DNA from: Candidatus Buchananbacteria bacterium
Lineage (GTDB): Bacteria > Patescibacteriota > Patescibacteriia > CAIXNZ01
DNA: 64,000 nucleotides
Assembly: GCA_014729025.1 (NCBI GenBank)
Contig: WJKP01000045.1
Coordinates: 20,015-84,014 of the forward strand
Reading direction: 5' to 3'
Every line of letters starts with the position of its first letter. Positions within the stretch are counted from its first letter, which is position 1. The translations under genes were made by a program, and so were the position numbers. The notes under the pieces were generated by a model that was given only the letters and a program-made list of their open reading frames with translations, made no database searches and was not told the origin of the DNA. Positions 4,395-58,221 of this stretch are shown one piece after another.

Positions 4395-5813
4395 ATGAGA
4401 AAAATATTACTTTGCTTAATTATAAGTTTAATCTTGCCGGCACAGGCAATTGCCCAAGAAACAACCAATGATAATATGATCACCAGACCAATGATACGCA
4501 TTTTAAATTCTGAAAATTTTACCTTAGAATATGAATTTTATCCATTTTCAGAAGACTCAACAGCCCAAGGCGCTAATATTGCTACTGCTGACTTAAATAA
4601 TGACGGTTACAAAGAAATAATAGTAGCCACTGGCCGAAATGAAAAACCTTGGGTAAAAATATTTAATCATCTTGGTAAATTTCAATATCAATTTTTAGCC
4701 TATGCCGAGACTTTTCAAAAAGGCTTTAAGATAATCACTGCTGATTTATATAATGATGGTTCGCCTGAAATAATTACTGCGCCTAATGAAGGCGGTGGGC
4801 CACAAATCAGAATTTTTGATAATCTTGGTTTTGCTTATTTTAGTTTTTTTGCTTTTGATGAAAGCCTAAGGGGTGGCGCCAATGTTTCAGTCGGTGATGT
4901 CAATGGGGACAGCCAACCAGAAATAATAGTTGGTGCTGGTTATGACCAAGAACCAATCATTAAAATCTTTGATAATTACAGCAATTTTATAAAAGCCTTT
5001 TATACTTATGACGATAGTTTTAAAGGTGGTATTTCGGTTTTAGCGGCTGATTTAAATAAGGACAAAACCGCTGAAATAATTACTGCGCCTTATATTGAAA
5101 AAGAACCAATGATCAGAATTTTTGATTATGACGGTAATTTAATTAATCAATTCATTGCTTATCCTCAAGGCTTTTGGGGCGGAGTTAACTTAGCCAAAAG
5201 TGATGTTGATCGGGACGGTTATTTAGAAATTTTAACCGGCGCCGGTTATAGTGGGGGGGCTCATTTAAGATTTTTTAATAAAGAGGGCATTCCTAAAATT
5301 AACCCAACTTTATTTATTTTTGATAATTTTAAAGGCGGTATTTCCATTGCTGACGGTGACATTAATAATGACGGCCAAACAGAAATATTAGCCGCGACAC
5401 AAATAATTTCACCAATTGATAAATATGATTCTTACAAATCTATTGAAATTGATATTAATCAGCAAAAATTATTTACTTATTTTAAAGGCCAGCCAGTCAA
5501 AGAATTTTGGGTATCAACAGGCACCTGGAAATTCCCAACACCCTTGGGTGAATATAAAATTTATGCCAAGGTTCCCAGTACAAATATGACCGGTTATTAT
5601 GGTTTTAATCATCCTGATAACTATGAACTGGCTAATGTACCGCATGTTATGCCTTTTTATAAAAATTATGCTATCCATGGTGCTTACTGGCATTGGAATT
5701 TTGGTACCAGAGTCAGCCATGGCTGTGTTAATTTAAAATTACCAGATGCAGAATGGTTATATAATTGGTCTCATATTGGCACACCTGTAAAAATTCATTA
5801 TTCAGCTCAATGA
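4395..5813 (+). CDS. Secreted FG-GAP/VCBS-like repeat protein with a C-terminal L,D-transpeptidase (YkuD) domain
   Basis: A signal peptide MRKILLCLIISLILPAQA is present. About 6 repeats of the form AD(L/V)N(N/G)DG..EII.A are visible. The C-terminus carries ...GTRVSHGCVNLKLPDAEWLYNW, the YkuD catalytic His/Cys. Confidence 0.7.
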   Translation: MRKILLCLIISLILPAQAIAQETTNDNMITRPMIRILNSENFTLEYEFYPFSEDSTAQGANIATADLNNDGYKEIIVATGRNEKPWVKIFNHLGKFQYQFLAYAETFQKGFKIITADLYNDGSPEIITAPNEGGGPQIRIFDNLGFAYFSFFAFDESLRGGANVSVGDVNGDSQPEIIVGAGYDQEPIIKIFDNYSNFIKAFYTYDDSFKGGISVLAADLNKDKTAEIITAPYIEKEPMIRIFDYDGNLINQFIAYPQGFWGGVNLAKSDVDRDGYLEILTGAGYSGGAHLRFFNKEGIPKINPTLFIFDNFKGGISIADGDINNDGQTEILAATQIISPIDKYDSYKSIEIDINQQKLFTYFKGQPVKEFWVSTGTWKFPTPLGEYKIYAKVPSTNMTGYYGFNHPDNYELANVPHVMPFYKNYAIHGAYWHWNFGTRVSHGCVNLKLPDAEWLYNWSHIGTPVKIHYSAQ

Positions 5814-8936: not shown

Positions 8937-10172
8937 ATGAAAAAAACAAAAAAATTAATTTTTCTGTTAATTTTATGCTTATTGATTTTAAGCTGCAATT
9001 TTAGCGTTGCCTCAGAAACAAATTATGATTTATATTCTGATGATTCAGAAATTCAAGATCTGAATCAAAAAATCAAAAATAATCAAAATAAAATAGAAAA
9101 TTTAAAAAAAGCTACTGAAGAATATGCGCAAAAAATTGAAGAATACAGAGATAAGGCTGCTTCTTTAAAAAATCAAATTTCTTTACTGGATAATCAAATC
9201 TTAAAATTAGAATTGGATATAAAAACAACACAATTGCAAATAGATAAAATAAAACTGGAAATAGAATCAATGGAATTTCAAATTGATAAAGAAGAAAAAG
9301 ATATTGAACTGCAAAAAAATAATTTAATTGAATATATTAAATTAATAGATCAAACTGATCAAAAATCATATTTAGAAATTTTAATTCTTAATAATTCGTT
9401 TGCTGAATTTTTCAACCAATTAAATTATTTGGAGGAAATTCAAAATAATATTAAAAATTCTGTTGATCGGCTTAAATTATTAAAGGAGGCGATTGAAGTT
9501 CAAAGAGCTGATAAAGTAACTCGTCAAGAAGAATTAGAAGAGCTAAAACAAGAGCAGGAGGCACAAGAAGAAAAATTAAAACAAGAAAACAAAGCTAAAG
9601 AAATTTTACTTCTAGAAACAAAATCTTCAGAAATTCAATTTGAAAGACTTTTGGTTGAAACCAGGCAAAGGCAAGAAGCTATTGGTACTGACATTGTTGA
9701 CATTAAACATAAAATTGAAGACCGGATAGAAAGACTAAGAAGTGGTAGTACCTCACCAAAAACAACTTTGCTTAGCTGGCCAATTCCTGCCCCTCATACT
9801 GTAACGGCTTATTTTCATGACCCTGATTATCCTTATCGTTATATTTTTGAACATCCGGCTATTGATTTAAGAGCCAGTCAAGGCACAGCCATTACAGCCC
9901 CGGCACCTGGCTATGTCGCTAGAATTAAAGATGCAGGCTATGGCTATAGTTATATAATTTTGATTCATGATAATAATATTTCTACAGTCTATGGTCATGT
10001 CAGTGCCATGTATGTTACTGAAGACACTTTTGTTGACACAGGTGATGTTATTGGTTTAACAGGCGGAATGCCCGGTACGCTAGGCGCTGGTAATTTGTCA
10101 ACCGGACCTCATTTGCATTTTGAAGTTAGATTAAACGGTATTCCTGTAAATCCTTTGGAATATTTGCCTTAA
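8937..10172 (+). CDS. Secreted coiled-coil M23 (LytM/EnvC-like) metalloendopeptidase
   Basis: A signal peptide is followed by a long heptad coiled coil (QDLNQKIKNNQNKIENLKK...). The C-terminal M23 motifs are HPAIDL (HxxxD) and GPHLHFEVR (HxH). Confidence 0.8.
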   Translation: MKKTKKLIFLLILCLLILSCNFSVASETNYDLYSDDSEIQDLNQKIKNNQNKIENLKKATEEYAQKIEEYRDKAASLKNQISLLDNQILKLELDIKTTQLQIDKIKLEIESMEFQIDKEEKDIELQKNNLIEYIKLIDQTDQKSYLEILILNNSFAEFFNQLNYLEEIQNNIKNSVDRLKLLKEAIEVQRADKVTRQEELEELKQEQEAQEEKLKQENKAKEILLLETKSSEIQFERLLVETRQRQEAIGTDIVDIKHKIEDRIERLRSGSTSPKTTLLSWPIPAPHTVTAYFHDPDYPYRYIFEHPAIDLRASQGTAITAPAPGYVARIKDAGYGYSYIILIHDNNISTVYGHVSAMYVTEDTFVDTGDVIGLTGGMPGTLGAGNLSTGPHLHFEVRLNGIPVNPLEYLP

Positions 10173-10194
10173 TTATAAAAATATAAAAAAAATA

Positions 10195-11235
10195 ATGAAA
10201 TCTAAAAATTTTATTAATAATAAAATTTTTCTTATTACTGGTATTATATTGCTAAGCTATATTTTTTTATTTACCTCAAATTTAAAAGCAGCTTCCCCCA
10301 CAAAACAGGCTGAATTAACCCTACAAGTTCCTTTACTTGGTTATACGAAAGCTTCGGGTATAGCAGAATATATAGGTAAAATATATGAAGCATCACTTTA
10401 TATTATAGTACCGATTGTTATTGTTATAATAATATTTGCTGGTATTAAATGGATTTTTGCTGGGGGAGATGTATCTAAAATAAAAGAAGCTAAAAAATAT
10501 ATTACCAGTGCTTTTATTGGTTTAACTATAGCCCTTTTAAGTTATGTTATTTTATCATTTATTGGTATAACTGAATTAGGGACACCTGAAATTAAGCATA
10601 TTGAAGAAATAGAATCACCTGATATTTTTAGCGCTCCACCAACTGGGTTTAATGTTAGCGCACCAGGTGTTATTCCTGGCGATATTTATTGTCCTAAATC
10701 AGGAGGTGCTGCATCCATGGAAAAAATAGCCAAATCAGCAGTTGGTAGGGTTACTTATAGAATGGGAGGGAAAATCTGGAACGGACCGCCTTATACTGCT
10801 GATAGTAAGGATTGCGGAGTCGCTCCTTGTAAATCTTTTTGTCCAACAGGAACTGTTTGCCTTGACTGTTCTGGCTTTGTGAGTTTTGTATATAAATGTG
10901 GTGGTTTAAAAGGCCCCCCTTCATATACTGGCTCGATGTTTGGTTGTAATTGCAGTAAAAGTGAAAAAATTAATAATGTTGGACCCAACTCAATAAACGG
11001 TAAAACATTAGTCCCTGGTGATTTTGTTGGTTATCCTTCTGGCTGTAAACACGGAGTCGGCCATGTTTACATTTATGTTGGCGGTGGAACCATATTTGAA
11101 AGCCATGGCGGTGGCGGAACTTCAAACCCCAATAGTGGCAGACATCCTGGTAAAGCTATTTTAGGCACACCTTTTAATTCTCACCGCTGGGTAGGCGCTG
11201 GCAAACCTAAATGCGTGGTTAGAATTAATCCTTAA
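10195..11235 (+). CDS. Secreted protein with a VirB2/TrbC-pilin-like N-terminal two-helix module fused to a Cys-rich NlpC/P60 peptidase domain (paralog 1 of 3)
   Basis: The N-terminal module is LQVPLLGYTKASGIAEYIGKIYEASLYIIVPIVIVIIIFAGIKWIFAGG...FIGLTIALLSYVILSFIGI. The C-terminus carries the NlpC/P60 catalytic Cys in CLDCSGFVSFVYKCGG and His in GHVYIYVGGGTIFESHGG. Confidence 0.7.
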   Translation: MKSKNFINNKIFLITGIILLSYIFLFTSNLKAASPTKQAELTLQVPLLGYTKASGIAEYIGKIYEASLYIIVPIVIVIIIFAGIKWIFAGGDVSKIKEAKKYITSAFIGLTIALLSYVILSFIGITELGTPEIKHIEEIESPDIFSAPPTGFNVSAPGVIPGDIYCPKSGGAASMEKIAKSAVGRVTYRMGGKIWNGPPYTADSKDCGVAPCKSFCPTGTVCLDCSGFVSFVYKCGGLKGPPSYTGSMFGCNCSKSEKINNVGPNSINGKTLVPGDFVGYPSGCKHGVGHVYIYVGGGTIFESHGGGGTSNPNSGRHPGKAILGTPFNSHRWVGAGKPKCVVRINP

Positions 11236-11241
11236 ATTAAT

Positions 11242-12195
11242 ATGAAATTTAAAAAAATAAAATTAACAATATTTTTTTCTGTTATTTTTTTATCCGTTAA
11301 ACCATTAGTTGGGTTAGCCACAACAGCAGAAACAGCTAAGTTAAAATTGCAAGTACCTTTATTAGATTACACGGAAGCAAGCAACATAGCCGAATACATC
11401 GGTAATATTTATACCGCAGTTTTATATATTATTGTTCCAATTATAATTGTTGTAATAATTTTTTCTGGTATTTTATGGGTTATAGCAGGTGGCAATCAAG
11501 AATTAATCAATAAAGCTAAAAGTCGAATTTTACATGGATTTATTGGTTTAGGTATTGCTTTATTTAGTTATGTTTTACTTTCTTTTGTTGGAATAAAAGA
11601 AATAACAACACCGGGTATCGCTAAAATTGATCCGGTAAAAGGACAATACATAATTATCGATGGAGAAGTTTTATCTGTTGATGAAGCTATGTCAAAACTT
11701 CCACCAGAAAGAAGGGGGAAAATGAGTGCTTTTGATGCTGCCAGCTGTCCCAAAGGACAAACAACATTTGAGGTCTTCTTCACAAATTATTATTTTCCAC
11801 AATATGGAGAATCTTATGGCAATAACGACTTTTTTTGTAATGTTGGCATGCAGTGCAGCTGCCCCAAAGGCAAAGATACAAGTAGACAATGTAATTATGG
11901 GAAACGATATAATCCCTGTGCTTATTTCCCGAAGGGAACGCCTTATTGTAATGCAACCGCCTCTGGCAGACCTCCCAAGGCGAATTATACGGTAGCTGCT
12001 GATGATTCCTGTTTTAAATATGGTTGCAAATTTACTATTCAAGGAAGCGCTTCTAATACATACGAAATTATGGATACTGGTAGTTGGATAAAAAACAGAC
12101 ACATGGATTTATTTGTTGGTACTAGAAGTAATATTAATAAAATCCATGGCGTATATACTATTAATTTATTAAACCCTTCAGCCTGCTTTAAATAA
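11242..12195 (+). CDS. Secreted protein with a pilin-like N-terminal module fused to a Cys-rich 3D (MltA/YuiC-like, DPBB) domain (paralog 2 of 3)
   Basis: The N-terminal module is LQVPLLDYTEASNIAEYIGNIYTAVLYIIVPIIIVVIIFSGILWVIAGG...FIGLGIALFSYVLLSFVGI. The C-terminal ...YEIMDTGSWIKNRHMDLFVGT resembles the conserved-Asp 3D domain. Confidence 0.6.
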   Translation: MKFKKIKLTIFFSVIFLSVKPLVGLATTAETAKLKLQVPLLDYTEASNIAEYIGNIYTAVLYIIVPIIIVVIIFSGILWVIAGGNQELINKAKSRILHGFIGLGIALFSYVLLSFVGIKEITTPGIAKIDPVKGQYIIIDGEVLSVDEAMSKLPPERRGKMSAFDAASCPKGQTTFEVFFTNYYFPQYGESYGNNDFFCNVGMQCSCPKGKDTSRQCNYGKRYNPCAYFPKGTPYCNATASGRPPKANYTVAADDSCFKYGCKFTIQGSASNTYEIMDTGSWIKNRHMDLFVGTRSNINKIHGVYTINLLNPSACFK

Positions 12196-12211
12196 AATTT
12201 TACGACACATC

Positions 12212-13357
12212 ATGAAAAACCATAAAAAAACAAAATATTTATTAATTATTTTTATTGTAATTTTTTTATTTTGTTTAGCTACAAACACTGTAAATGCTCA
12301 ACAGACTTGTGAACAAAAATATCCGGGTGGGGATGGCGTCTGTCGTGATACTTGTAAAGATTGGGAATCTGAAGATAGTGCTTCTGGACTTTGTTCTGAT
12401 GCAAATGAAACATGCTGTCACGAATTTGCTGAAACAGCCAGCTTACAACTACAAATACCGATTTTGCAATACACTGAATCTTCAAATGTTTATGAATATG
12501 CCGGTAATATTTATACTGCTGCTTTATATATTATAGTACCAATCGCAATTGTAGTTATTATTATATCCGGTATAATTTGGGCGTCTTCAGGCGGTAATGC
12601 CGAACAAATGCAATCCGCTAAAAATATGATTTTAAGGGCTTTTATTGCTCTTGGTATTGCACTTTTAAGTTATACGATTTTATCCGTTGTAGGTATTACC
12701 TCTATCGGCGGCGGGGCAGGGGTAACCTATCTAGAACCAACATCTGAAGAATACGGAATTTTAGAATTTGAAAACTCAGTTGGCATGTCAACAGGAGTCA
12801 CCGGTGCTAATTATCCCAGTATTGGGGGCAAATGTTTTCCAGTTGCCGCTAATAGTTTTAAAAAAATTAGCTGGAATTGGGGAAATAGAAGAAGTGATGG
12901 AAAAAGATGTCATGCCGGAATCGATATTTATACCAAAAGTCCTGGCCATGTTATTGCTATTGCTGAAGGGGTTATAACTGGAATCTCTAAAAATTTTTAT
13001 ACTTGCAAATCCGGCTGGACAGGCCCTGGCAAAGTAGGTAAAATTATGATTAACCACGGCATCCATACAATAAATTATGCTGAAATAGATGTTGATAAAT
13101 TTGCTGGTGGTATACGAATCGGTAAAACTGTAAAAGCCGGAGAATTTCTGGGTGTTGCCGGACATTGCGGTATGTTGCATTTTGAATTATATAAAGGTAA
13201 AACAAGCAACAGCACCCCCTGGTACCCACCTTCAGGTAAAAGGGTAGGAGGAGCAGCAAATTATTGCCGCGCCCATTATCTTTCTTCTAAGCCAGCGAAT
13301 CTACTTGATCCCTCAAAAACAATACAAGCTTTACAAAGTAATATGTGTGGTAAATAA
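12212..13357 (+). CDS. Secreted protein with a Cys-rich leader, a pilin-like module and a divergent M23 peptidase domain (paralog 3 of 3)
   Basis: The module LQIPILQYTESSNVYEYAGNIYTAALYIIVPIAIVVIIISGIIWASSGG...FIALGIALLSYTILSVVGI is present. The M23-like motifs are CHAGIDIY (HxxxD) and GHCGMLHFELY. The N-terminus has 6 Cys in 40 aa. Confidence 0.65.
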   Translation: MKNHKKTKYLLIIFIVIFLFCLATNTVNAQQTCEQKYPGGDGVCRDTCKDWESEDSASGLCSDANETCCHEFAETASLQLQIPILQYTESSNVYEYAGNIYTAALYIIVPIAIVVIIISGIIWASSGGNAEQMQSAKNMILRAFIALGIALLSYTILSVVGITSIGGGAGVTYLEPTSEEYGILEFENSVGMSTGVTGANYPSIGGKCFPVAANSFKKISWNWGNRRSDGKRCHAGIDIYTKSPGHVIAIAEGVITGISKNFYTCKSGWTGPGKVGKIMINHGIHTINYAEIDVDKFAGGIRIGKTVKAGEFLGVAGHCGMLHFELYKGKTSNSTPWYPPSGKRVGGAANYCRAHYLSSKPANLLDPSKTIQALQSNMCGK

Positions 13358-13363
13358 ATTATT

Positions 13364-13744
13364 ATGAACCATTATTCTAATATTGAACAAATCTTTAATC
13401 AAGCCAGTAAATGTTTAAAAGTTACAGGGTTTGCTTTTAAAGTAATGAATAGAAAAGCACCAATTAATACATCTAAAAATTTTTCTGTTGGTTATATTAA
13501 TTTAAAAACAAAAATAATTGCTTTGGATATTTATACCCCCAAAAGAAGACAACCTAAAAGCATTAATTCAATTTTACGTATAATTGCCCACGAAATAGCA
13601 CATTATCAAAAAAAGCCTTATAAACAATATTTTAAAGGACGCTGGATAACCAGAAGCCACTATCCAGGCTTTTATAAACAAGTAAATAAGAATATTAAAA
13701 AATTACAAAAAGATAAGGAATTAGGTGAATATTTTAAAAAATAA
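13364..13744 (+). CDS. Short basic HExxH protein of the DUF45/YgjP/SprT-like zincin family
   Basis: IIAHEIAHYQKKPYKQYFKGRWI...HYPGFYKQV resembles the HELxHLxxxNHSxxFW motif of DUF45 metal-dependent hydrolases. It is only 126 aa. Confidence 0.45.
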   Translation: MNHYSNIEQIFNQASKCLKVTGFAFKVMNRKAPINTSKNFSVGYINLKTKIIALDIYTPKRRQPKSINSILRIIAHEIAHYQKKPYKQYFKGRWITRSHYPGFYKQVNKNIKKLQKDKELGEYFKK

Positions 13745-13767
13745 AAATAAAATATAATTAAAATAAA

Positions 13768-13800
13768 AAAGAAGGTATTTGAAAAAACCTCTTTTTTTTT
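13768..13800 (+). terminator. Intrinsic terminator after the HExxH gene
   Basis: An imperfect hairpin aagaaggt-atttgaaaaa-acctctt is followed by T9. Confidence 0.5.
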
Positions 13801-14061
13801 ATTAATAAATTAAAAGGAGAGTGGTTATCTTACGAACAGCATTGCGACGCACAATATATCTTATACGACACAACAAGCGTATATTTACACAAGTGCCTTT
13901 CTTATTAATTTCTAAAAAATAAAAATTTATACATTTTGTAAAATTTTCAAACTTTATTTAAATTTAATAATAATTTCAATTAATTCAAACGGATAAAATC
14001 TATTATATTATATTTAATTAATACTTCCAGATTCAAATATTTAACTCAAATAACCCAAGTA

Positions 14062-14090
14062 TTGACAAATCGTCAAATATATGATATATT
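14062..14090 (+). promoter_or_regulatory. Near-consensus sigma-70 promoter with an extended -10 (TTGACA-N17-tgaTATATT)
   Basis: TTGACA lies at 14062-14067. A 17-nt spacer follows. TG is at 14082-14083 and TATATT at 14085-14090. The promoter sits about 38 nt upstream of the aaaaggaggt SD and the ATG at 14128. Confidence 0.55.
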
Positions 14091-14127
14091 ATAAAATTGC
14101 ATTTAATCTTAAAAGGAGGTAACGGTA

Positions 14128-14274
14128 ATGCCAATACTGAATTGCCCACAATGCGGCGCTCAAATGAATTATTTTGATAATAATTCTAGAGCTCAATGCC
14201 CAATCTGCAAAACCTGGGATTTTGCTTTCAGGTTGCTAAAATGGACAAAACAGACTACACCGGCAACAATGTAA
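14128..14274 (+). CDS. 48-aa zinc-ribbon small protein (CxxC...CxxC), not in the ORF track
   Basis: The product is MPILNCPQCGAQMNYFDNNSRAQCPICKTWDFAFRLLKWTKQTTPATM. A strong SD AAAAGGAGGT is 7 nt upstream. A consensus promoter lies upstream. The ORF is followed by a caccggc/gccggtg-like hairpin and T-run that overlap the ftsQ 3' end. Confidence 0.5.
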   Translation: MPILNCPQCGAQMNYFDNNSRAQCPICKTWDFAFRLLKWTKQTTPATM

Positions 14275-54504: not shown

Positions 54505-56526
54505 TTATAATTCAATTATATCACCTTCTTTAACATTATTATTATTTTCCTCTGCTGAAGCCAGTAAATTAGCCGCTGGCAATTTTTCTTTTGTCGAGCC
54601 TTTTTCTGCTTTTTCTGCTTTTTCTTGAACTTGTTGTGAAGATTCTTTTTTCTCCGGAGCTAACACTTTTTCTTGTTCTACAGATTCTTTTTCTGCTTCA
54701 ACCGGTTGTGTTTTTTTAATTTCCTTTTGTATTTCTGGTCTTGAAATTTCTTGTTTGGTTGGCTGTACTGGCTTAGTTTCTTTTATTGTCTTTTGCTTGG
54801 CTAATCCTATGGGCTTATCTTCTTTAATTGGTTGGATTTTTTGAGGTTCAGACTGTTTTGCTGATTCCGATTTTTTTTCTTCAGGTGATTTACCTTTAAA
54901 ATCAACGGTTTTTTGCGAAATCTGTGATAAAGAAACAGCTTCTTGTTGTTGTTGCGTTTTTTCTTTACTCACTTCATCAGGTTTAACACCTATTTCTCCG
55001 CGGCGAGCTTTTTTAAGGCATTCTTTACAAAAAACTGGACGCACATTATCTGGCTTAAAAGGTACTTCAATTTCTTTTTTACAGCCAGAACAAACAGCTG
55101 GCCAGCCCTTATCTTTCTTTTTTTCATTTGATGTGGTTTCCGCCTCTCCTTGTTTTAATTTTTGCTCATTTGACTGTTGAGAAATCAGCTTACCTTTTCC
55201 TTCAACTTCCTTTTTGTCTTCAGTTATTACACCACTCCATCTTTTTATTTTATCTTCAACTACATTTTTGGGTTTAGCGTATCTTTCCCTGGAAACATTA
55301 ATAACTTTTTGTTCGTTACCCAAAGAATCACTATAAACCGGGGGTAACCCTCTAGCTGAAAATGGTTCAGAGGCTATCCCGTCAATCATTAATTTTAAAT
55401 AGATATGAAACTTTGGCAAAGCGACCAGATCTTCCTGAGTTAAATAAGGCATAAACTCTTTTTCTAAAAATTCAGCATCAGCTGCACCGACCCGAAAACA
55501 CATTAAAGTGCCGACATTACCAAAAACTGCCGGTCTAACTACCTCGCCTAATTGTTCTATATATTGATGAGCAATAATTAAATTCAAGCGATACTTACGA
55601 GCCTCTGATAAAATATCAGCAAAAGAATCGGTCGCAAAATTCTGAAATTCATCAACATATAAATAAAAATCTTTCCGATTATCTTCTGGAATATCAACCC
55701 GGCTCATAGCTGCCAACTGAATTTTTGTAACCATCATGGCACCAAGTAAAGCAGAAGCGTCTTCACCAATTCTCCCCTTGGAAAGATTTAGAATTAAAAT
55801 TTTATTTTCATCCATTACTTTTCTTAAATCAACTGCTGATTTAACCTGACCGACTACATTACGAATTAATGAAGTTGATAAAAACTGCCCCACCTTGTTT
55901 TGAATCGGTGAAACAACTTCTTGTAAAACTCTTTCATTCCATCTGGGAAATTCATCAACCCAAAAAGAACGAACTACCGGATCAGTAATTTTAGCTACTA
56001 CTTTTTTACGATATTCTTTATCAACCAACATACGGTTAATTCCCAATAAAGTACTATCTGGATATTCCAAAAGAGCCAAAATCGCATTTCTTAAAATATA
56101 TTCCAAACGAGGTCCCCAAGAATCAGCCCATAACTTTTTAAATACACCAATTAAACCAGAAGCAACCAAATGACGATGCTCAGAAGAAACTTTTTCCAAA
56201 ACATTAAATGAAATGGGATAATGCAAATCAGACGGATTAAAATAAATAACATCATTAATACGACTGCTTGGTATCCAGCTCAACATCTTTTCGGCAGTAT
56301 CACCATGAGGATCAACATAACAAACCCCTTTACCGGCAATAATATCCGAATAAACCATATTTTCAATCAAAGTTGTTTTCCCCATACCGGTTTTACCAAT
56401 AATATAAACGTGACGACGCCGATCATCTTCTTTAATCCCAAAAATCCGCTCTCTGTTTCTAAAAGTTGTTACAGCAAAAGGTGTGATTCCGCTTTCCACT
56501 GCTTTTTTAATTTGTTCTGTTACCAT
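54505..56526 (-). CDS. VirD4/TraG/TrwB-like type IV coupling-protein ATPase domain protein. It has no N-terminal TM, a C-terminal Zn ribbon and a K/E-rich tail.
   Basis: Walker A is HVYIIGKTGMGKTTL and Walker B is FYLYVDEFQNF. RKYRLNLIIAHQYIEQL and an all-alpha-domain-like AVFGNVGTLMCFRVGAADAEFLEKEF are present. The C-terminal zinc ribbon is CSGCKKEIEVPFKPDNVRPVFCKECLKK. Confidence 0.55.
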   Translation of the reverse strand: MVTEQIKKAVESGITPFAVTTFRNRERIFGIKEDDRRRHVYIIGKTGMGKTTLIENMVYSDIIAGKGVCYVDPHGDTAEKMLSWIPSSRINDVIYFNPSDLHYPISFNVLEKVSSEHRHLVASGLIGVFKKLWADSWGPRLEYILRNAILALLEYPDSTLLGINRMLVDKEYRKKVVAKITDPVVRSFWVDEFPRWNERVLQEVVSPIQNKVGQFLSTSLIRNVVGQVKSAVDLRKVMDENKILILNLSKGRIGEDASALLGAMMVTKIQLAAMSRVDIPEDNRKDFYLYVDEFQNFATDSFADILSEARKYRLNLIIAHQYIEQLGEVVRPAVFGNVGTLMCFRVGAADAEFLEKEFMPYLTQEDLVALPKFHIYLKLMIDGIASEPFSARGLPPVYSDSLGNEQKVINVSRERYAKPKNVVEDKIKRWSGVITEDKKEVEGKGKLISQQSNEQKLKQGEAETTSNEKKKDKGWPAVCSGCKKEIEVPFKPDNVRPVFCKECLKKARRGEIGVKPDEVSKEKTQQQQEAVSLSQISQKTVDFKGKSPEEKKSESAKQSEPQKIQPIKEDKPIGLAKQKTIKETKPVQPTKQEISRPEIQKEIKKTQPVEAEKESVEQEKVLAPEKKESSQQVQEKAEKAEKGSTKEKLPAANLLASAEENNNNVKEGDIIEL

Positions 56527-56538
56527 ATTTAAATAAAA

Positions 56539-58221
56539 TTAATCAATAAATGGAATATTACCAGGAATAGCTCCTGTCGATTTATCTGATTCAGAATCCT
56601 CTTTTTCTTCTTTTAGTTTTGTAGATTCTGTTTCTTTTTTGGTTTCCTTTGCTTTTTGGGGTTCAGCTTCTTGTTTTTTTATTTCTGCTAATTTTTCTTT
56701 TTCTTCTTTAGCTATTTCTGCCAATCTATCTTCTCTGACCGGCCGTGTCTTTTTAAATTTATCTTTATCTTTGGCAAATTGCATTTCAAAATCATCACTA
56801 TCATAATCAAAAGTCGGCTCAAATTGTTTTTCTTCTTCAGGTGTTTCTTGGTGAGCTTGTTCTGCCCTATCTTCAACCGGTTTTAATGGGGCTTCTTGAA
56901 CGGGTAACCCAACCGGCGCTGCTGCTTTGGTAAATTCTGTTTTCTTTAATAAAGGCGCTTTAACATACATACTTGGGAAATGCCACAAAGAAGCTAATTC
57001 TTCACTACATAATGGTTTAGCTGGTACACCAACAACTGTATCGCGGTTAATATAAGCTCGAATAAATTGATTTTTACGCCATTTTTTACGAGCTTGAATT
57101 AAAATATATTGAGGTGAATTAGTGCCAGTTTCTTTTAACATCGGCCTTAAACCATTAGTATTGACATCTGTCCATTGCTTTATAGAACCAATCATCGCAT
57201 TAACACCCAATGTTTTATTCATTTTATCTTTTTCTGCTACATAAAGATAACGTATCTTAGTATTAAAAGCCCATTTGGCTGTTTTTCTTTCAATACCATC
57301 AACTATTTCTTTTTGAGCTGAAGTTAAATTCATTATACTGGGCTGTTTTTCATCTACTTTAGCCTCTTCACCGCCCCCTAAATTCACCCCAGCTAATTGA
57401 TCTGTAAATTCATTTATAAAATCAGCTGGAAATTTAAACAGACTTCCAAAAAATCCTTGTTTTGGCTTTGATTTAATACCTATAACTTTATTTACCTCTT
57501 CTTTACCTTGTTTAATGCCCCAATCAACCGCCAAAGGAGTTAAAATATATTGAACCCAAATTTGCTCGCCTGGACCTATAGAACTCATTGTTTCTAATAA
57601 TGCTGCCATAGGATCAACAAAAGTTTCAGAAAAACGGTGCTCAAATTTTTGCCATGATTTTAAAGGAATCAACGGATTAGCTGAAAGTGTAAATTCTACA
57701 CCCCAAATATCATGTGTATCATTGGGATAATCTTTAGGAACAGAATTAACATAATCTTCAACCTCAGTAATTTCCGCATCAGGAAATTGAGAATAAACAG
57801 CCGCCTCAACCAAATTACGCCAATCACCTGGACAACGAATTAGAAACTGAATATTGCCTTCAATACTAACCAACTCAACTGATAATGAACGCATGAACTC
57901 ACCTTCAATATATGTCCCCCATTTAGTAAAAGTTGTATGAGCGCCTTGTAAGTGATCAAAAAAGTTTTCCATCGCCTGAATACTTTGCTCATTTCTTTTA
58001 GGGACATCTATAGCCAAAATTACCGGACCAGGCTGTTTACTAGCCCATTTTCCGCCAATATATAAACGATATTCAGGATATATTAAATAACGCAAAACAA
58101 TATAAACAAATAAAACCCAGAGCCAATACTTAAATAACAGGATATATAATATCCCAAAAGTTGATTGACCTTCAAACTGGGCTAAAAATTGATAAAAATA
58201 AGTTAAATCTATTTCAATCAT
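56539..58221 (-). CDS. hypothetical membrane-anchored protein, probable partner of the downstream coupling ATPase
   Basis: The N-terminal TM is ILYILLFKYWLWVLFVYIVL. A ~400-aa globular domain and a K/E-rich tail follow. Only 12 nt separate it from the ATPase gene. Confidence 0.45.
   Translation of the reverse strand: MIEIDLTYFYQFLAQFEGQSTFGILYILLFKYWLWVLFVYIVLRYLIYPEYRLYIGGKWASKQPGPVILAIDVPKRNEQSIQAMENFFDHLQGAHTTFTKWGTYIEGEFMRSLSVELVSIEGNIQFLIRCPGDWRNLVEAAVYSQFPDAEITEVEDYVNSVPKDYPNDTHDIWGVEFTLSANPLIPLKSWQKFEHRFSETFVDPMAALLETMSSIGPGEQIWVQYILTPLAVDWGIKQGKEEVNKVIGIKSKPKQGFFGSLFKFPADFINEFTDQLAGVNLGGGEEAKVDEKQPSIMNLTSAQKEIVDGIERKTAKWAFNTKIRYLYVAEKDKMNKTLGVNAMIGSIKQWTDVNTNGLRPMLKETGTNSPQYILIQARKKWRKNQFIRAYINRDTVVGVPAKPLCSEELASLWHFPSMYVKAPLLKKTEFTKAAAPVGLPVQEAPLKPVEDRAEQAHQETPEEEKQFEPTFDYDSDDFEMQFAKDKDKFKKTRPVREDRLAEIAKEEKEKLAEIKKQEAEPQKAKETKKETESTKLKEEKEDSESDKSTGAIPGNIPFID

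Follow-up and report, generated by a model that had tools for sequence, protein, structure and literature searches.

Predicted fusions of a pilin module to exchangeable peptidoglycan hydrolase domains at a conserved chromosomal slot of Candidatus Buchananbacteria

The 64-kb stretch of Candidatus Buchananbacteria DNA analysed here (contig WJKP01000045.1, G+C ~31%, hereafter the window) carries five successive open reading frames (ORFs) at positions 8937–13744, three of which encode proteins that join a pilin-like N-terminal module to a different peptidoglycan hydrolase domain each. A preliminary description of this DNA had placed the three fused genes at 10195–11235, 11242–12195 and 12212–13357, and the ORFs begin and end precisely there. 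The five ORFs suggest a single operon, as all are located on the + strand with successive gaps of 22, 6, 16 and 6 nt, and the ORF list of the window contains no small ORFs in the gaps of 6–16 nt between fusions 1, 2 and 3. Fusion 1 is identical to a database entry annotated as 'hypothetical protein' from a Candidatus Buchananbacteria metagenome-assembled genome (Parcubacteria group, Patescibacteria), while an Rfam scan of the window gave no match and ARAGORN detected no tRNA in it. The genes of the proposed operon are:

8937–10172, + strand: coiled-coil M23 peptidase (411 amino acids) at the head of the operon, with the M23 domain at amino acids 306–406 (nt 9852–10154)
10195–11235, + strand: fusion 1 (346 amino acids), with a signal peptide, pilin module at amino acids 38–141 (nt 10306–10617), linker and Cys-rich NlpC/P60 domain (Pfam, amino acids 222–307, nt 10858–11115)
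11242–12195, + strand: fusion 2 (317 amino acids), the variable slot, with a signal peptide, pilin module at amino acids 31–133 (nt 11332–11640), linker and 3D domain (Pfam, amino acids 250–305, nt 11989–12156)
12212–13357, + strand: fusion 3 (381 amino acids), with a signal peptide, mini-domain with six cysteines at amino acids 33–70 (nt 12308–12421), pilin module at amino acids 75–178 (nt 12434–12745), disordered linker at amino acids 163–205 and divergent M23 domain (Pfam, amino acids 233–331, nt 12908–13204)
13364–13744, + strand: cytoplasmic HExxH protein (126 amino acids), the last gene of the operon

All three modules matched the Pfam family T4SS_pilin (PF18895; T4SS, type IV secretion system) above its curated cut-off of 26.6 bits, with scores of 33.3, 37.2 and 32.2 bits for fusions 1, 2 and 3, respectively. 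The module had at first been likened to VirB2/TrbC type pilins, and this holds in so far as PF18895 is a VirB2/TrbC-related family, but the match to PF04956 (TrbC/VirB2) itself was weak (E 0.03–0.17). Weak matches were also obtained with DUF6112 and with an NCBIfam Mycoplasma model for 'pilin-like conjugal transfer' proteins of integrative and conjugative elements. Pairwise identity of the three modules was 53–64% at the protein and 59–66% at the DNA level, and 48–59% of the third codon positions differed between fusions 1–3; dating at the nucleotide level, as proposed in the preliminary description, therefore points to an old rather than a recent duplication of the module genes. Hydropathy plots predicted a signal peptide and two long hydrophobic, transmembrane segments in each fusion, with short, Lys-rich loops between the helices of fusion 1 (AGGDVSKIKEAKKY) and fusion 2 (AGGNQELINKAKSR) and a short loop with one lysine in fusion 3. 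Following the positive-inside rule, the ends of the hairpin should point outwards and the Cys-rich enzyme domain should be extracytoplasmic, and we infer that the hairpin, once the signal peptide has been removed, spans the membrane as VirB2 does, its charged loop on the inner side and both ends on the outer side. The AlphaFold2 (AF2) model of the module is a helix-loop-helix (module residues 20–52 and 57–91) with a predicted local distance difference test (pLDDT) score of ~90, with a low-confidence beta-hairpin ahead of the helices and a disordered linker of ~40 residues after them. At 317–381 amino acids, including a C-terminal catalytic domain, these are not small stand-alone pilins (about 100–160 amino acids).

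A mini-domain with six cysteines (C..KYP.DG.C...C...D...LC...CC) is located ahead of the pilin module in fusion 3, and 43 of 91 relatives have it as well. It lacks a family match, is modelled by AF2 as a small beta-rich fold (pLDDT ~80–86), and has been gained and lost independently of the enzyme domain.

The C-terminal domains had been described as NlpC/P60, 3D and a divergent M23, and this was borne out by Pfam scores of 36.6 bits for NlpC/P60 in fusion 1 (PF00877, cut-off 23), 32.6 bits for 3D in fusion 2 (PF06725, cut-off 23.8) and 26.1 bits for M23 in fusion 3 (PF01551, E 9.8e-6, under the cut-off of 28.7), the last together with matches to the M23 fold. Together with the identities of the modules, these scores are far outside what chance would give. 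A profile of 11 orthologs of fusion 3 matched M23 enzymes in the PDB, with TagE as best match (3.3e-4) followed by Csd-type enzymes, zoocin A, LytM and lysostaphin, and a Foldseek search of the PDB with the full-length AF2 model of fusion 3 (pLDDT 82–92 for the C-terminal domain) gave M23/LytM proteins as 21 of the 21 top matches (lysostaphin, 9.9e-6; Csd3, LytM, DipM, EnvC and PrgK). The preliminary description had left the catalytic residues to be aligned, and they are kept in two of the proteins: C225/H290/E302 of fusion 1 align with the catalytic triad of RipA (2xiv/3pbc), and D254/D278/D289 of fusion 2 with YuiC (4wli), which is lytic transglycosylase-like. Fusion 3 retains H234, D238 and H323 as invariant zinc ligands, but both accessory catalytic histidines of canonical M23 enzymes (H260 and H291 in LytM) are missing: an invariant Glu (E291) takes the place of the YxH histidine, and a 5-amino-acid deletion has removed the first His of the HxH motif. 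Since these histidines have been replaced or deleted, fusion 3 is best described as an M23-fold protein that is plausibly, but not certainly, active.

The enzyme domains of fusions 1, 2 and 3 contain 11, 10 and 6 cysteines, respectively. Judged from their sequences, the three fusions are exported, membrane-tethered peptidoglycan hydrolases built to one plan, which consists of a Sec signal peptide, an optional cap with six cysteines, a PF18895 hairpin, a disordered linker of ~40 residues and one disulfide-rich catalytic domain.

The three genes are members of a much larger family. A module profile search detected 43,939 cluster representatives at E ≤ 1e-3 and 3,026 at E ≤ 1e-10, and most of the best ~95 single-module matches were 300–600 amino acids in length. 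PF18895 was matched by 80 of the 83 closest representatives, with TrbC (PF04956) also matched by 4/83 (E ≤ 1e-3, best 2e-5). The domains attached in these 83 representatives were Peptidase_C39_2 (12), M15_4 (10), M23 (8), 3D (7), NlpC/P60 (7), VanY (6), Amidase_2 (3), SLT (2) and glucosaminidase (1), and appear to cover almost every peptidoglycan-cutting chemistry. A scan of a genome collection with an alignment of six module sequences yielded six loci, and the related genome loci compared with the window are labelled L001–L015 below. Modules that are 92%, 84%, 83% and 80% identical bear unrelated enzyme classes, and between the close relatives L001 and L004 the NlpC/P60 and C39-like domains are swapped between slots 2 and 3, with a leftover helix-2/linker fragment retained in L001. 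Locus L009 has 87–89% DNA identity to the window over both flanks, and its fusions 1 and 3 are 91.6% and 86.6% identical to those of the window at the protein level, whereas its slot 2 encodes a 381-amino-acid protein in which an SLT-like domain follows a six-cysteine cap and the module, as compared to module and 3D domain in the window, and only nt 11350–11603 of the module still align in this slot (at 79%). For fusions 1 and 3, the ratio of non-synonymous to synonymous substitution rates (dN/dS) was 0.10 between the window and L009, with 0.04–0.18 for adjacent housekeeping genes, and as this equals the neighbours it indicates that the fusion genes are functional and under purifying selection, with variation arising by cassette replacement and not by fast point evolution. 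The three fusions belong to a large Parcubacteria family in which the enzyme domain is exchanged as a cassette on a pilin module that stays constant as its carrier.

The preliminary description had presented the architecture as an undescribed one in triplicate. It is instead a sample of a large polymorphic family and not a local triplication, and the module and tandem pilin arrays have been published (PMC12102498, PMC10633639), but for the fusion of pilin module and hydrolase no description was found in the accessible text of the literature on Patescibacterial T4SS pilins. The automated JGI name of one relative does read 'D-alanyl-D-alanine carboxypeptidase-like protein/type IV secretion system pilin'. 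The apparent novelty lies in the recognition of the fusions as a large recombining family, in their fixed chromosomal slot, and in the functional link that they imply. The fusion family also constitutes a ready panel of small, disulfide-stabilised peptidoglycan hydrolases on a common carrier. The exchange of enzyme class among close relatives suggests adaptation to differing wall chemistries, and could help to predict the hosts of uncultivated lineages.

Such exchanges could also mark the fusions as polymorphic anti-host or anti-competitor effectors, with the module serving in delivery or display and the enzymes tuned to the peptidoglycan of host or prey, in support of feeding or attachment rather than the building of a channel. 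Polymorphic toxin and effector systems are well known, with wall-degrading effectors represented by Tae/Tge of the type VI secretion system and X-Tfe of the Xanthomonas T4SS, and their hallmark is a constant N-terminus combined with an exchangeable C-terminus. The window family shares with them the constant N-terminal part, the replacement of C-terminal enzymes by recombination and peptidoglycan as target, and the unrelated domains on closely similar modules, the replacement of slot 2 between 88%-identical genomes, the gene fragment left in L001 and the presence of nearly all classes of wall hydrolase in the family all fit this explanation, as does the epibiotic life of the known Patescibacteria (PMC11665869, PMC10633639). 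The family differs from polymorphic toxin systems in lacking adjacent immunity genes, with only 6–16 nt behind the fusions, as well as an XVIPCD, PAAR or LXG-type signal, and the predicted membrane-tethered enzymes would remain tethered unless cleaved. As fusions 1 and 3 also evolve at the pace of housekeeping genes, and no host is known for the window lineage, we consider an effector function unlikely.

The closest published relatives of the module are the VirB2-like pilins of Patescibacteria. According to a survey, tandem arrays of 2–11 such genes (PF18895/PF04956) occur in 383 Patescibacteria assemblies and a pilin is found near virB4 in only 1,135 of 1,948 assemblies, with identity within arrays averaging 25% and reaching at most 54% (PMC12102498), as compared to 53–64% in the window. 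The window fusions share the family, the signal peptide with two-helix hairpin and the arrangement as tandem divergent paralogs with these arrays, which include SEML1_0014–0019 of Southlakia epibionticum and those of Nanosynbacter TM7x. The published pilins are short (about 125–140 amino acids) and often encoded beside virB4, whereas the window proteins are enzyme-fused and encoded in a housekeeping region without VirB4. In S. epibionticum, the T4SS locus and the six short pilins are essential to epibiotic growth (PMC10633639, PMC12857230), and Table S2 contains the lysozyme/lysozyme/cysteine-peptidase SEML1_0006 and the M15B peptidase SEML1_0007 as separate genes directly beside virB4 (PMC10633639). 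The Patescibacterial T4SS and pilin arrays, which cultivated members require for their epibiotic life, have a role that another report calls completely unknown (PMC11665869).

We propose, with a probability of roughly 0.45, that the pilin-module-tethered wall hydrolases act with the Patescibacterial T4SS. The main argument is one of gene fusion (Rosetta stone), since enzymes of the kinds that are joined to the module in the window are encoded by genes of their own beside virB4 in Southlakia, a member of the Saccharibacteria; recruitment to the T4SS is proposed on the ground that the essential Patescibacterial pilin arrays are formed by this same module. The pilin hairpin would anchor the enzyme on a flexible tether within the wall compartment, and the module would recruit it to the assembly site of the T4SS or pilus, or into the pilus, where the enzymes could cut peptide stems and glycan strands at the point at which the apparatus crosses the peptidoglycan. 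The target wall would be that of the cell itself, and probably also that of an attached host. The fusions may in this way supply the VirB1-type function, for which a separate gene seems to be missing from most of these genomes. VirB1-type hydrolases of Gram-positive systems (PrgK of pCF10, TraG of pIP501, CwlT of ICEBs1 and Orf14/CD419 of Tn916) likewise combine an N-terminal membrane anchor with wall-opening LytM/M23, lytic transglycosylase and NlpC/P60- or CHAP-type domains, and the LytM domain of PrgK is among the Foldseek matches to fusion 3. They differ in having several catalytic domains per protein, a single transmembrane helix and a location inside the transfer operon, in contrast to one domain per protein, a pilin-module anchor and genes outside any T4SS cluster for the window fusions. 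As the fusion is widespread and joins a T4SS pilin module to wall hydrolase kinds encoded beside virB4 in Saccharibacteria, it makes the joint action of pilins and enzymes at the envelope testable. The probabilities of this and the other readings were set separately and are not mutually exclusive, so that their sum slightly exceeds 1.

Several observations weigh against a link with the T4SS, chief among them the lack of T4SS genes near the array. The module scores of 12.5–14.8 bits for PF04956 in the three fusions are under the cut-off of 27.9 bits, a fold search with the module matches any helical hairpin, and a domain of 200 amino acids on every subunit would be sterically hard to fit in a packed pilus. 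The array is always located among housekeeping and cell-wall genes (GluRS, FtsQ, SerRS, PBP2, MreBCD and YkuD), and tblastn searches detected VirB4 neither in the window nor in the 15 related loci other than L014. The association with a secretion or pilus apparatus considered in the preliminary description therefore finds no counterpart in gene neighbourhood, with no VirB4 or VirB6 encoded anywhere in the window or, in nine related genomes, at up to 10 kb from the array, although a 'wall-breaching toolkit' remains a reasonable inference for the array. The sole T4SS-like gene in the window encodes a coupling-protein-like ATPase (54505–56526, − strand), and is located 40 kb off among pentose-phosphate genes. 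In favour of the link, a 302-amino-acid extended PF18895 protein of L014 (Jorgensenbacteria) is encoded 1 kb downstream of a bona fide VirB4, beside dnaA and dnaN. The VirB4 search with L014 listed 120 matches, all of at least 78% identity, and none of the matches listed was on an array-bearing contig. A 608-amino-acid ORF of L012 was considered as a VirB4 candidate, and was found not to be VirB4.

The chromosomal slot has the gene order radical-SAM, LigT, FG-GAP/YkuD, WecG-NUDIX, GluRS, coiled-coil M23, 4-TM protein (with four predicted transmembrane, TM, helices; absent from the window and L009), 1–4 fusions, HExxH protein, FtsQ and SerRS, and this order is common to the window, L001, L002, L003/L004, L005, L007/L008, L009, L011, L012 (Falkowbacteria) and L013, with PBP2 and MreB further along the window. 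A slot of this kind, conserved, vertically inherited and adjacent to ftsQ, with PBP2, MreB/C/D and an L,D-transpeptidase nearby in Buchananbacteria, Falkowbacteria and other Parcubacteria, would be expected of housekeeping autolysins, in which the hairpin has been co-opted as a plain anchor and which, together with the EnvC-like M23 peptidase, reshape the wall of the producing cell as it grows and divides, without any link to the T4SS. Purifying selection equal to that of the neighbours and the lack of VirB4 within 10 kb agree with such a role, as does a second lineage in which the fusion is coupled to a DsbA-like gene, adjacent to RadA, and not to T4SS genes. It does not predict 1–4 genes at one locus or swaps of unrelated enzyme classes among close relatives, and a generic anchor is expected to be a simple transmembrane helix, yet the anchor is always the specific, well conserved pilin module; the same enzyme kinds moreover occur in the T4SS locus of Saccharibacteria. 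An autolysin function is hence the main alternative, but on balance somewhat unlikely.

A stronger form of the T4SS proposal is that the fusions are true pilus subunits, forming an enzymatically armed T4SS-type pilus (or its tip or base) with exchangeable hydrolases that cut the host wall, and cassettes swapped to match host wall chemistry. If true, this would account both for the essential role of T4SS and pilins in epibiotic growth and for the usual lack of a separate VirB1, but we rate it as distinctly unlikely. To our knowledge, there is no report of a Patescibacterial pilin that polymerises into a T4SS pilus.

The region directly behind helix 2 allows for yet another arrangement, in which the fusions are pro-pilin precursors and the enzyme is cut off at a juxtamembrane motif, P-x-[IV]-[EQ]-Y-I-[ED], to give a mature pilin and a free hydrolase; this would be compatible with the other readings. 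RP4 TrbC and Ti VirB2 undergo C-terminal trimming, the motif is conserved right after helix 2 whatever the enzyme class, the linker is disordered, and a conserved HExxH protein is co-transcribed with the fusions. The motif is present in strict form in only 38 of 91 relatives, however, and is degenerate in all three window fusions, while the HExxH protein lacks a signal peptide or transmembrane segment and would therefore be separated from the motif by the membrane, making this processing improbable. Single ORFs with 3–11 tandem modules (P0037 with six in 552 amino acids, P0111 with eleven in 1,147 amino acids, and also P0038 and P0040) were detected as well, and such 'polypilin' ORFs imply either processing between the modules, as pro-pilins would, or very large multi-hairpin membrane proteins.

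The HExxH protein (13364–13744) had been called DUF45-like, and this label is not supported: the protein has only a conserved HExxH motif and a later His, and neither it nor its orthologs (seven in total) showed a DUF45 match at E ≤ 10, a PDB match or a significant family, with only a weak match to Peptidase_Mx1 (E 0.028). Orthologs with 69–77% identity end the array in six other genomes, with H76, E77, H80 and H99 invariant.

At the other end of the operon, the upstream EnvC-like coiled-coil M23 protein (8937–10172) was confirmed with a Pfam M23 score of 79.9 bits and an NCBIfam EnvC match across the coiled coil, under the cut-off of that model. It shares a signal or anchor, long coiled coil, C-terminal LytM/M23 domain and nearby division genes with coiled-coil LytM factors of the EnvC/NlpD type, but the E. 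coli EnvC LytM domain is a degenerate amidase activator, whereas the active site is intact here (HxxxD, H306/D310; HLH, H392/H394), and for this reason the protein is probably an active peptidase and not such an activator. An ortholog precedes the array in every syntenic genome, and no FtsEX genes were seen near 8937–10172.

Between the array and the downstream genes, two further features were identified:

13844–13871, + strand: dif-like element of 28 bp, between the operon and ftsQ
14062–14090 and 14128–14274, + strand: near-consensus promoter and zinc-ribbon ORF of 48 amino acids

The first is an imperfect 11-6-11 palindrome (GCGACGCACAA-TATATC-TTATACGACAC) with one copy in the window and 0 expected by chance, which resembles E. 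coli dif. Despite divergent flanks, it is identical or has one mismatch in L001, L003/4, L005, L009 and L013, and both GC skew and gene strand switch at ~14 kb of the window, so that the variable array adjoins a candidate chromosome-dimer resolution (Xer/dif) site. Four syntenic loci are without the dif-like element, and two of these, L002 and L007, have a tyrosine recombinase gene at that spot.

In most of the syntenic relatives, a protein of 142–147 amino acids with four predicted membrane helices is encoded between the coiled-coil M23 gene and the first fusion, and overlaps the start codon of the latter. It was absent from the window and L009, and had no Pfam or PHROG match. Its positions are:

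L001: 9564–10004, 4-TM protein
L002: 9576–10004, 4-TM protein
L004: 2536–2976, 4-TM protein
L005: 9573–10004, 4-TM protein
L007: 9567–10004, 4-TM protein
L011: 9255–9695, 4-TM protein
L012: 9465–9908, 4-TM protein
L013: 7543–7974, 4-TM protein

The translational coupling of this protein to fusion 1 allows the array to be viewed as the remnant of a prophage lysis cassette, with anchored endolysins, the 4-TM protein as holin and an integrase nearby, and the catalytic domains do match phage lysin families (PHROGs), while a tyrosine recombinase gene is present in some relatives. We have set this origin aside as extremely unlikely, as the PHROG matches are confined to the catalytic domains, without a match for module or 4-TM protein, and a tblastn search with fusion 1 of 50,697 phage records gave no match. 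Furthermore, there are no other phage genes, the locus is syntenic over candidate phyla, and the recombinase is better explained as Xer-type at the dif-like site. A tblastn search of plasmid records with the module likewise gave no match.

The zinc-ribbon peptide (14128–14274) had been placed under a consensus promoter, which was confirmed as TTGACA-17-TATATT with an extended TG and 11/12 matches, with AAGGAGG as ribosome binding site. This ORF is probably outside the hydrolase operon. The 48-amino-acid peptide (CPQC...CPIC) is 54–57% conserved in L002/L010 and L003/L004, and in L009, the closest relative, an internal deletion of 17 residues takes out the zinc ribbon.

In a more distant Patescibacterial lineage, a gene for a DsbA-like thioredoxin (L006 9345–10004 and L015 1044–1664) overlaps the start of a pilin-NlpC/P60 fusion, with radA and recG adjacent. 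This coupling suggests dedicated disulfide formation for the Cys-rich enzymes, and fits because the fused enzymes are predicted to be exported and disulfide-rich.

Some arrays contain extra genes without the module, at L004 4071–7886 (1,271 amino acids, without a family match), L007 11004–12161 (385 amino acids) and L011 11939–13114 (391 amino acids). Identity between the L007 and L011 proteins is 34%, and the former begins with a hydrophobic segment. The 365-amino-acid neighbour of the L014 pilin was considered as a relative of these two proteins and rejected, as there was no significant overall similarity, with alikeness confined to the C-terminal ending (KLYF.N...L..L.L).

Elsewhere in the window, the coupling-protein-like ATPase at 54505–56526 is predicted to be soluble, with matches to TrwB_AAD_bind (34 bits) and TraG-D_C (23 bits), a treble-clef zinc finger and a long Lys/Glu-rich tail, and is adjoined by a gene (56539–58221, − strand) for a 560-amino-acid protein that matches no family and has a membrane segment at its N-terminus. 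Nearer to the array, the ORF at 4395–5813 (+ strand) encodes a secreted protein with FG-GAP/VCBS-type repeats and a C-terminal YkuD L,D-transpeptidase domain, an envelope-remodelling enzyme that occupies the same position in all syntenic genomes.

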